Part shown: piece after piece, positions 19,867-35,144 of the stretch
How positions within the stretch are numbered: the first letter of the stretch is position 1
Layout of the letters: each line of letters begins with the position of its first letter
Assembly: GCA_048882385.1 (NCBI GenBank)
Contig: JBHLRQ010000013.1
Location: 1-49,189 of the forward strand
Direction: 5' to 3'
Length of the DNA: 49,189 bases
From: Candidatus Thorarchaeota archaeon
GTDB lineage: Archaea; Asgardarchaeota; Thorarchaeia; Thorarchaeales; Thorarchaeaceae
Position numbers and translations under genes: made by a program
Notes under the pieces: generated by a model
The model's database searches: none
Seen by the model: only the letters and a program-made list of their open reading frames with translations
What the model was told of the DNA's origin: nothing

Positions 19867-21012
19867 GTGTACAAAGTGTCTCGAAGACTTCAGCAATTGA
19901 AATACCCTTTCTCAGCTGAAGCCAGACAAGCATCACAAAAGATGGCTAGAGACCTTGGTGCGCTTGTAGATCTTCTTGAAGACCCGGAGAACAATTACAT
20001 CGTGGAAGAAGCTGAGGCTAGGGTCTTTGCAGCTCTGACTCAATCTGAGATTCGATATCCTGAGATGGAAAATGAAAAAGATGTTCTGATCTATCCCACA
20101 GCTCGTCTTATTGTCGAAGAGCTTGGTCTTCCACGCTTGAGATCACTACAAGCTGAAGCTGAATCGAAGGAAGCAAATAGACAACTTGGAAAAGAAGAGA
20201 ACGGTTTTGTGATGGATCTCTGTACAGGGTCTTTTGGATGGGGTGTAGAATCTCTTGGAGACCTAGGCAAACGCGCAAGTCTTCCTCTAATGCTTCGCAC
20301 CTACGAGATTAAAATCCGTTTTGAGAACTACCTTGAAGTGGCACCCTCATTTCATAGCGATGAATGGAGTCTAATCAATCGATACATGGACAAAGGATGG
20401 ATTCCAATTCGTCGATCTGAATTGGATCGACTCATTTCTGGCAAGTTCAGGCAACTTATCATGCAGGGTCGATTTGATATTCCAAGAATGTCTCAAAGGT
20501 TAATTGAGGCTGTTCATCGGATTGAATCCGAAACAAAGGGCAGGATTCGTCAGGTAGAGCATGTGAAAATAACAGAAACTCTCTCTAATGCATTTCCGCC
20601 ATGCATGGAGAAGATGTACAACGACTCGATGGCAGGCGAGGTCAATCTCTCTCATGACGCTAGGTTTGCACTTGCTGCATTTCTTCTTCGTATAGGAATG
20701 GAGGAAACTGATGTTCAGCGAGTGTTTAGTGGGTCTCCTGACAAACACACTAGTATTATCGAATACCAAGTTCGTCATATTGCTACAAAAAGATCAGTTG
20801 GTGAAGAACAGGGGGGTTATGTGCCTCCTGGTTGCAAAAAATTAAGAGTCAATAACCTATGTCCAGTCTATCTAGGAGCAACCTTCGACCCGTTGTGTGA
20901 GTATATATTGAATCCTCTTGCATTCTATCAGACAAGAGCCTGGGAGCTCACAAAGGGAATAACAGACCACTCTTGGTATGGGAAGAAGAAAAAGAAGAAA
21001 CAGGATTTTTAG
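19867..21012 (+). CDS. priL: DNA primase large subunit
   Basis: FPPCM, LSHDARF.LA.FL..IG, YQVRHI, and Y.PPGC..L....LCP...C Fe-S cysteines. Confidence 0.9.
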   Translation: MYKVSRRLQQLKYPFSAEARQASQKMARDLGALVDLLEDPENNYIVEEAEARVFAALTQSEIRYPEMENEKDVLIYPTARLIVEELGLPRLRSLQAEAESKEANRQLGKEENGFVMDLCTGSFGWGVESLGDLGKRASLPLMLRTYEIKIRFENYLEVAPSFHSDEWSLINRYMDKGWIPIRRSELDRLISGKFRQLIMQGRFDIPRMSQRLIEAVHRIESETKGRIRQVEHVKITETLSNAFPPCMEKMYNDSMAGEVNLSHDARFALAAFLLRIGMEETDVQRVFSGSPDKHTSIIEYQVRHIATKRSVGEEQGGYVPPGCKKLRVNNLCPVYLGATFDPLCEYILNPLAFYQTRAWELTKGITDHSWYGKKKKKKQDF

Positions 21013-21860
21013 CTCTTAGCTGAACATCGAGAATAATGATAGAGATACTCCTGAGCATAACCTGCGAATCTTCCAAAGTATCTACGAGCAGCTTCTGACT
21101 TTCTCAAGTAAGATTTTCCTGCTTCTGAGAACACCCCGTAGTTTTCTTGTATCACACGTTCAATCCACACATCGATTGGGAATGCTTCAAGAAATCCTAA
21201 GGAGAATAAACAGATACAATCCGCCACCTTATTGCCCACACCATGAAGAGTTTTGAGATTCTTATGAGCATCAATGTATTTCATTGACTTCAGAGAATCC
21301 TCCGAGACCTTTCCCTCTATGATTGATCTAGTTGACTCTACGATGAATCCAGCTCTCCATGCCAGCCCCAATTTCTTCAGATCATTGGTTGTTACTATTG
21401 ACAGTTGCTCAGGTGCTGGCATTCCGTAATACTTCTTACCACGAAACTCGTATGATGGTCCCCACTCTCGTCTGATAGCATTAGTCATCCCTCGGATTGC
21501 TGGCACATTTTTCCAAACTGAGCAAAGAAATGAAACAAGACAAGGAAAGAAAGGATCATTGACTATACGGAGGTCTGGGGCAAACTCAATGCTCGCCTTC
21601 ATGATTCCATCTCTAGATATCTCTCTCTGTATCTCTTCCAATGGGTCGTCCAATCTGAGAAGTTCTCGTAGATTCACATCATCACTAGAGGTATCATAAT
21701 AGAGAGCGCTCTCCTTTTGTTCGACATACACTACTTGACCGATATCTGCGTTGATGTATCCGTTTCCCTCTCTCACCCAACTGAATGTTTGACCGCATTC
21801 AAGTGTGTCAGAGAGACTGAACCTCTCAACCTCTATGTTTCTCATTATGCCCTCAATCAC
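21009..21860 (-). CDS. 8-oxoguanine DNA glycosylase (OGG1-like, HhH-GPD)
   Basis: TLECGQTF.W, HhH LHGVGNKVADC, FPIDVW, AGYAQEYLY. Confidence 0.9.
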   Translation of the reverse strand: MIEGIMRNIEVERFSLSDTLECGQTFSWVREGNGYINADIGQVVYVEQKESALYYDTSSDDVNLRELLRLDDPLEEIQREISRDGIMKASIEFAPDLRIVNDPFFPCLVSFLCSVWKNVPAIRGMTNAIRREWGPSYEFRGKKYYGMPAPEQLSIVTTNDLKKLGLAWRAGFIVESTRSIIEGKVSEDSLKSMKYIDAHKNLKTLHGVGNKVADCICLFSLGFLEAFPIDVWIERVIQENYGVFSEAGKSYLRKSEAARRYFGRFAGYAQEYLYHYSRCSAKS

Positions 21861-21974
21861 CGTCCATGAAATGAGTATTGTGCTCTGTTTGTTTTTTCCC
21901 CTGGATTAGAATCATCTTGCGAAGCGTTTCTGTTGAATGACAAAACTAAAACATAATCTCATTGAATTAGACAG

Positions 21975-22040
21975 GCGGCAGTGATGATTTCCTTACTGAG
22001 ATTGTGAACAAATGATCGACCTTAGGGGTATCTGAGCCGC
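21975..22040 (+). ncRNA. Box C/D guide sRNA candidate
   Basis: Stem GCGGC, A, C box GTGATGA (21981-87), 16-nt guide, D' GTGA (22004-07), C' ATGATCG (22012-18), 13-nt guide, D box CTGA (22032-35), stem GCCGC; fully intergenic. Confidence 0.85.
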
Positions 22041-22045
22041 ACCAA

Positions 22046-22537
22046 TCATTCCAGCTCTGAAAATTCCCTAGCGTTTCTTATTACAATATCAGTCAGTTGT
22101 CCTACATCATCATTTGTTATCACAGGAATGTCTGATATCAGATTCGGCCTTTCTGACCATGTTATGATTGCCTGAGTGTTTGGTGGCACATCATCAAGAA
22201 TAAGGTCGTTTTCTCCAATACACCACAATCTTGGTATATCAACTGACTTCATTCCTTCAATAATCAGAAAATCGTGTTCCACTAATTTGGTCAGATCCTC
22301 ACTGCGAATGATATCCCTGAAATTGAGGTTTTCTCTGTCTGATTTGTGGAACAATGTCACAGTTGCTCCTGCTTGTTTATGCCGCCAGGTATCTGTTCCA
22401 TGTTCCGGACCGGGGTCGTGTTTCGAGCTCTTTATAGTTGCAACAGAATATCCAGAATCAACTAGGGATCTTACTATTGCTTCTACAAGTGTTGTCTTCC
22501 CTGTTCTGGAGTATCCAGATATTGCAAATACACGCAT
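22046..22537 (-). CDS. mobB: Molybdopterin-guanine dinucleotide biosynthesis protein B
   Basis: GYSRTGKTT P-loop, IK..KH, GTDTWRH..AGA, IIEG.K. Confidence 0.88.
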   Translation of the reverse strand: MRVFAISGYSRTGKTTLVEAIVRSLVDSGYSVATIKSSKHDPGPEHGTDTWRHKQAGATVTLFHKSDRENLNFRDIIRSEDLTKLVEHDFLIIEGMKSVDIPRLWCIGENDLILDDVPPNTQAIITWSERPNLISDIPVITNDDVGQLTDIVIRNAREFSELE

Positions 22538-22662
22538 CCTGAAAAGAGCAAACAATCATGCATATGGGAATTTCGTTTCGTTAGAAGGTAAAAAAAATCA
22601 CTGCTCGAAGGGCGAGGCTTAAAACGGAGTCATAACAGACTCGAAGCTGGTGAATTCACACT

Positions 22663-35068: not shown

Positions 35069-35144
35069 ATCGGTCAGATTGCGGTTTAGAGGTTCATCAC
35101 GCTGATGAGGTCGTTCACCATCCCTACTTCATCATCATCCCGAC
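35069..35144 (-). ncRNA. Box C/D guide sRNA candidate
   Basis: Minus strand: stem GTCGG, G, C box ATGATGA, guide TGAAGTAGGGATG, D' GTGA, spacer, C' GTGATGA, guide ACCTCTAAACCGCAAT, D box CTGA, stem CCGAT; TATTTA about 24 nt upstream. Confidence 0.82.

Follow-up and report, generated by a model that had tools for sequence, protein, structure and literature searches.

In the 49,189-nucleotide window, by which we mean the whole stretch of Thorarchaeota DNA that was analysed, a 66-nt element on the plus strand lies between a gene for 8-oxoguanine DNA glycosylase and a mobB gene, and it is almost certainly a real box C/D sRNA gene. The kind is a known one: the sRNA is a further example of the archaeal box C/D guides, here from Thorarchaeota. 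The site between these two genes, as proposed in the initial annotation, agrees with the protein families of the neighbors, and the features of the locus are as follows.

21009–21860, minus strand: 8-oxoguanine DNA glycosylase gene (PF07934), divergent from the sRNA
21946–21951, plus strand: TATA-like motif CTAAAA, a putative promoter of the sRNA itself, 28 nt upstream of the stem
21975–22040, plus strand: box C/D sRNA gene, 66 nt (covariance model R1; conservation well above that of the flanks)
21975–21979, plus strand: terminal stem, 5′ arm GCGGC (97% of cells paired)
21980, plus strand: A between stem and box C (from the sequence)
21981–21987, plus strand: box C, GUGAUGA (GTGATGA in DNA); RUGAUGA in 48 of 48 parsed homologues, a count built in by the parse, of which RUGAUGA was a precondition
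21988–21997, plus strand: D′ spacer, 10 nt, variable (parse of 48 homologues; loose pairing with the D guide)
21998–22001, plus strand: box D′, GAGA, with GUGA in other genera (homologue parse; see below)
22002–22011, plus strand: D′–C′ loop, 10 nt, rich in purines (10 nt in 45 of 48 homologues, 9 nt in 3 of 48)
22012–22018, plus strand: box C′, the variant AUGAUCG (homologue parse)
22019–22031, plus strand: D guide of 13 nt; predicted partner 23S rRNA 2438–2449, with G22027 (position −5) opposite C2441
22032–22035, plus strand: box D, CUGA (CTGA in DNA; from the sequence)
22036–22040, plus strand: terminal stem, 3′ arm GCCGC (from the sequence; pairing in homologues)
22046–22555, minus strand: mobB gene (PF03205), convergent, ending 5 nt past the sRNA

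Boxes C and D and the five-base-pair GC stem, on the plus strand, are as the initial annotation had drawn them in its K-turn layout. Its D′ box, GUGA at 22004–22007, is wrong: a G1–C′6 pair followed by GA is found there in 12 of 48 homologues and at 21998–22001 in 46 of 48, a figure partly built in by the preference of the parse for D′ boxes starting with G, the constant 9–10-nt loop being independent of it. With D′ at GAGA 21998–22001, the D′ spacer and the D′–C′ loop are each 10 nt long, and the 16-nt first guide that had been read here (TTTCCTTACTGAGATT) falls away, the true D′ box lying inside it. All seven homologues with A at C′5 carry U at D′2, and the internal D′/C′ boxes are capable of forming a K-loop. 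At one closing pair of the terminal stem, C–G is replaced by U–A in 3/20 sequences. Among the 48 homologues the D′ spacer measures 9–13 nt and the D spacer 12–14 nt, the window's own being 10 and 13 nt; the RNA is thus compact (66 nt), with spacers near the ≈12 nt given as typical of archaea (PMC7229835).

Boxes and stem alone are not beyond chance expectation: one of 462 C–D pairs in the genome has a Watson–Crick stem of at least five pairs, with about 0.55 expected by chance. The minimum free energy z-score of the element is −2.2. What decides for a real gene is conservation. Homologues of the same genus share on average 87.5% identity with the window copy across the element, compared with 51.5% in the 60 nt before it (25 homologues) and 45.7% in the 60 nt after it (24 homologues). 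In a BLAST search of 61 genomes with a 601-nt query, the element is ≈85–91% identical in same-genus relatives, the coding flanks ≈70%. Covariance model R1, built from 20 homologues that match by construction, finds the sRNA in 44 of 86 family genomes and 8 of 16 genera; conservation in relatives had been named beforehand as a check, and both the model and the flank comparison bear the boxes out. An exact pattern of the 3′ half recovers 29 stretches from the GTDB collection, 21 labelled as Thorarchaeota, one as Promethearchaeota and seven simply as archaea. The sole Rfam match over the window at E ≤ 10 is RF01172 (sn2343; 19.2 bits, E 7.7, gathering score 60), which resembles the element in its generic C/D ends; the score is below the gathering threshold, so the element is not a member. 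Elsewhere, contig G093:C552 (L125) carries two diverged copies of the sRNA ≈765 nt apart, one of them altered at guide position −3, and a further box C…box D candidate with a four-pair stem, not matched by R1, lies at 35084–35138 on the minus strand of the window.

Upstream of the element, the pattern [CG]T[AC]A[AT]A occurs 24–33 nt away in 37 of 48 homologues and in 7 of 288 control windows, a count inflated because the pattern was derived from those very sequences. A scan for bacterial-type promoters and terminators found none. The head-to-head order of glycosylase gene and sRNA is kept in most genera, and mobB as a neighbor is mostly confined to the genus. On the minus strand, a motif upstream of the glycosylase gene (CACAATACTCA, 21872–21882) may be the divergent glycosylase promoter; 18 of 48 homologues have it no more than 150 nt from the sRNA, and the transcript would then start, nearly leaderless, at about 21845. 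The genome encodes Nop5 and fibrillarin, adjacent on contig C29, as well as L7Ae-family genes, so that all three protein partners of an archaeal box C/D sRNA are present at gene level; together with the conservation, these partners uphold the proposal of a box C/D guide RNA in an Asgard archaeon.

In every structural feature that could be tested, the predicted sRNA fits the archaeal box C/D class, sharing with it a length of ≈60–70 nt, the C/D K-turn, the C′/D′ K-loop and the N+5 rule, as described in PMC6009581, PMC7229835 and PMC7994747; its target fits loosely and its activity is predicted. It differs from the class in a duplex weaker than the usual prediction threshold and in its Asgard host. 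Our literature search found no catalogue of Asgard C/D RNAs, PMC9932318 and PMC7994747 included, the latter making no mention of Asgard archaea in the part consulted.

The main role of the sRNA is probably the methylation of 23S C2441 (E. coli numbering), as predicted from its D guide. A 23S target had been claimed for this guide from the outset and is supported; the site then proposed, ACCCCUAAGG, is not, since CCTAAGG occurs in none of three complete same-genus 23S genes and none of five 16S genes examined, and the only own-genome occurrence of the 10-mer is the opposite strand of the element. The invariant guide positions led instead to UACCCC-A-GGGGU in domain V of 23S rRNA, and the best D-guide site is UACCCCAGGGGU in helix 74, in an imperfect duplex. 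Aligned to the E. coli 23S rRNA, with numbering offset by one so that U2552 and G2251 of PMC4644070 agree, the target covers 2438–2449 and guide position −5 lies opposite C2441. This residue is ten nucleotides before A2451, beside the catalytic peptidyl-transferase centre. Position 2070, with which we take 2441 to pair in helix 74, is G in Thorarchaeota 23S rRNA, in keeping with that pair. In the genome itself, Rfam models match no 16S or 23S gene and BLAST gives a 220-nt 3′ fragment of 23S only; targets were read from relatives because the genome's own rRNA, including the 23S target region, is almost wholly unassembled.

The duplex in the window has six continuous Watson–Crick pairs at −2 to −7, an A·A mismatch at −8, two G·U pairs and three further Watson–Crick pairs, so that 11 of 12 positions pair. 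Guides of this C2441 type number 43, and five homologues carry a different D guide. Conservation of the 43 guides tracks the duplex: positions −2, −4 and −6 pair in all of them, −3, −5 (the N+5 pair) and −11 are Watson–Crick in 42, −10 is either U (G·U, 30 guides) or C (G–C, 12 guides), and −1 is unpaired. The target 12-mer is unchanged in 23 of 27 family 23S loci, and in three further loci; the remaining four of the 27 have an insertion within it (three) or a single change (one). C2441 is the top 23S site for 33 of 43 guides, a reference 23S being used where the cognate was lacking, and in the six genomes with full 16S and 23S genes of their own it is outright best in three, tied in one, second in one and outside the top four in one. 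As 63 of 500 shuffled D guides score equally well somewhere in 16S and 23S rRNA, the match alone is insignificant, and the case for C2441 therefore rests on conservation and precedent. A mismatch is present at −7 to −9 in all 43 guides. Lui et al. (2018) generally ask for nine continuous pairs (PMC6009581), against six here, and with another guide, methylation in vitro fell sharply when position 3 formed a G·G mismatch (PMC9670817).

The precedent consists of three C/D sRNAs identified by RNA-seq (Dennis et al., 2015; PMC4644070), Methanopyrus kandleri sR16, Sulfolobus acidocaldarius sR128 and Ignicoccus hospitalis sR425, for which the target given is alignment position C2715, a prediction rather than a mapped methyl group. 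By our own column count, C2715 is E. coli 2441. The D guides of all three likewise end in GGGGUAN in the same register, and the D spacer of sR16 is also 13 nt and nearly identical in sequence (PMC4644070). Unlike the Thorarchaeota guide with its central mismatch, however, the three guides pair without mismatch at −7 to −9, and each RNA carries a further guide for which a target close by is predicted (G2697, C2772, C2698), whereas the Thorarchaeota sRNA has no conserved D′ target, the variant boxes D′ GAGA and C′ AUGAUCG, and a 10-nt loop. A pattern search of 151 genomes of the phylum gave 18 matches, outside the family 5 of 124, and three of those five (G129, G121 and G046, from two other Asgard families) can be recognized clearly as C/D RNAs, in which the guide is uninterrupted. 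By inspection, the D′ guide of G129 and G121 has an 8-nt complement in the same-genus 23S rRNA of G053, a short way upstream of the D target, resembling sR128, whose second guide is likewise predicted to act near its D target. At the level of search listings, we found no mapped archaeal methyl sites at 2441.

Several rRNA genes of relatives are interrupted around this site. The 23S genes of G073, G062 and G031 (L163, L164, L162) have an insertion of 32–33 nt right before C2441 and a second one after ≈2450, leaving a mini-exon of ≈10 nt; as the target is split, the guide retained in G073 could act only after splicing. Five others (G009, G033, G004, G093 and G061; L145, L161, L221, L222, L159) have insertions of ≈150–800 nt near 2450, just after the target, which are probably rRNA introns. 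The 16S gene of G014 (L042) has an insertion of ≈900 nt, seemingly protein-coding, and a short 3′ insertion, both probably introns as well.

It seems rather unlikely that the D guide instead methylates 16S rRNA near C115 (Thorarchaeota numbering, UACCCU core), alone or besides 23S C2441. The core UACCC is common to both sites, and the imperfect guide would then be a compromise between them. Over −2 to −11, the summed score of the 16 distinct guides is tied between the two sites at 12.31; A at −9 (19/43 guides) and A at −7 (6/43) form A–U pairs with the 16S site and are mispaired on 23S, and the 16S site is top for G064 and tied for G074. The targets predicted for M. kandleri sR39 and sR119 are also only one nucleotide on, at 16S C122 of the alignment in PMC4644070. 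Duplex energy, on the other hand, favors 23S for 13 of 16 guides at full length and, when only −2 to −11 is considered, for 15 of 16; 16S prevails in three of the 16, the window's guide not among them, which reaches −15.1 kcal/mol on 23S and −10.7 kcal/mol on 16S, where two adjacent mismatches interrupt the duplex. Moreover, A at −8 mispairs with both sites alike, and the conserved positions −12 and −13 pair, in most guides, with 23S only.

The central mismatch found in all 43 guides could conceivably, though this is doubtful, have been selected rather than left by drift: one guide would serve two look-alike sites, 23S C2441 and 16S near C115, or be deliberately detuned, with the D′ spacer as a guard strand. 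Detuning is proposed because the perfect antisense of a palindromic target would pair with itself: the self-dimer energy is −20.1 kcal/mol for the perfect antisense and −12.4 kcal/mol for the window's guide, and the palindromic target also accounts for a hairpin seen within the D guide. When D′ spacers are paired with the D guides of their own RNAs, 38 out of 40 distinct combinations do better than shuffled spacers, though each effect is weak (median p ≈ 0.17), and the own-type D guide does better than the other type in only 29 of 40, which is a hint of guard-strand pairing. For rRNA, in both parses, no 16S or 23S site recurs in more than five of 35 distinct D′ spacers; comparison with 37 tRNA genes gave no notable site, and for the 48 nt that precede the D target (19 cognate pairs) the median window p was 0.5, G064 alone (1/19) pairing fully with that stretch, 10 of 10. 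Helix 88 was null overall, with no covariation except in G064. We find no conserved D′ guide directed to a second rRNA target within ≈100 nt of the first.

The five homologues with another D guide fit the 23S A-loop, with U2555 at −5 in all five. In G025 a U2555-type guide occupies the same glycosylase–mobB locus, G065 has C2441-type and U2555-type forms in tandem, and in three genomes of another genus the U2555 type is found at unlinked loci. The genome studied here has, at ≈1040–1240 of contig C38 (L225), a tandem pair of C/D-like RNAs whose C boxes are variant; on our own reading 23S G2446 fits the D′ guide of each, and U2555 fits the D guide of the second. Their targets overlap that of the sRNA at 21975–22040. 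If true, one scaffold swapping its D guides would be a natural series for guide retargeting in Asgard archaea.

The overlap bears on another unlikely reading, that the RNA is a folding chaperone for helix 74 or a guide in decay, the interrupted duplex allowing scarcely any methylation or none. That every one of the 43 guides is mismatched at −7 to −9 would suit it, as would the loss of the −5 pair in one homologue (G032), the better match that one of the C38 RNAs has to an overlapping stretch, and the failure of R1 to match in 8 of 16 genera, one of which gave 0 matches among 17 genomes, despite an unchanged target. Non-matches in draft genomes under strict filters do not, however, amount to absence; the boxes are intact, and −5 is Watson–Crick in 42 of 43 guides. 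A loose distal duplex need not do harm either, because extensive pairing can inhibit methylation (PMC7229835).

For methylation of C2441, the gene and its boxes, their conservation, the partner genes and the complementarity to the rRNA of relatives are directly demonstrated. The steps from transcription of the sRNA through RNP assembly to methylation are those that we infer from sequence. In archaeal RNAs of this class, L7Ae binds the C/D K-turn and the C′/D′ K-loop, and Nop5 and fibrillarin then assemble. Here the sRNA would be transcribed independently and have one working guide; L7Ae would bind the C/D K-turn and the GAGA/AUGAUCG K-loop, the RNP would form on them, the D guide would pair with 2438–2449 of the pre-23S rRNA, that is, the 3′ strand of helix 74, and fibrillarin would methylate the ribose of C2441. 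The D′ spacer would be a guide that has degenerated or is an orphan; sRNAs with one orphan guide are common, and 28% of Pyrobaculum guides are orphans (PMC6009581).

The sRNA adds an entry to the Asgard rRNA modification set, together with a precise prediction, Cm2441, by the peptidyl-transferase centre, a result that will hardly surprise specialists. Because guides of Sulfolobus, Ignicoccus and Methanopyrus are predicted at C2441 too, our analysis suggests an old archaeal site rather than a step toward eukaryotic snoRNAs. The tie to snoRNA origins raised in the initial annotation is weak, the predicted site being common to non-Asgard archaea. The site of eukaryotic snR38/SNORD1, presumably the equivalent of E. 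coli G2446, is in the same helix but five nucleotides off and at a different nucleotide, and we know of no 2′-O-methyl group at the equivalent of 2441 in yeast or human. How far mismatches are tolerated and how guides are retargeted could be studied here on a small scale, given a mismatch that is conserved and a single locus at which C2441 and U2555 guides are exchanged.

Highly improbable, and largely refuted by the sequence comparisons, is a reading in which the central block GAGAUURUGA guides methylation of the anticodon loop of elongator tRNA-Met, in the manner of Haloferax sR-tMet or human SNORD97: such guides exist (sR-tMet, Joardar 2011, as cited in PMC6601510) and the block has, by inspection, 10 nt of complementarity to the anticodon arm of the genome's own tRNA-Met(CAT), but it is box D′ plus loop rather than a guide, it has no D-type box five nucleotides from C34, and in other genera it varies so as to break the pairing while the arm is constant over its first nine positions in 14 of 14 parsed copies (30 loci) and in two more.

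Other candidate targets were rejected in turn. The 16S 790 loop gives only six guide pairs, the longer match extending into box D; 23S helix 69 (10 pairs, two of them G·U, with −5 on a wobble) is broken in half of the homologues; and the 3′ strand of 16S helix 44, tried for the D′ side, is good in G017 and G012 and not in others. A 10-pair match of the D guide to a tRNA intron (C1:113055–113161) is private to this genome, scoring 14 here and at most 10 in the 22 relatives having both sequences. ARAGORN labels that tRNA gene Arg(ccg), but it appears to be Thr(UGU) with a D-loop intron; of 25 same-genus copies, 15 have the intron and 10 lack it. The tRNA calls include a tRNA-Sec gene at C4:5427–5517. 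The intron of elongator tRNA-Met (C1:110644–110786; L062) is conserved across the family, with GGGGUCA invariant in 14 of 14 parsed copies.
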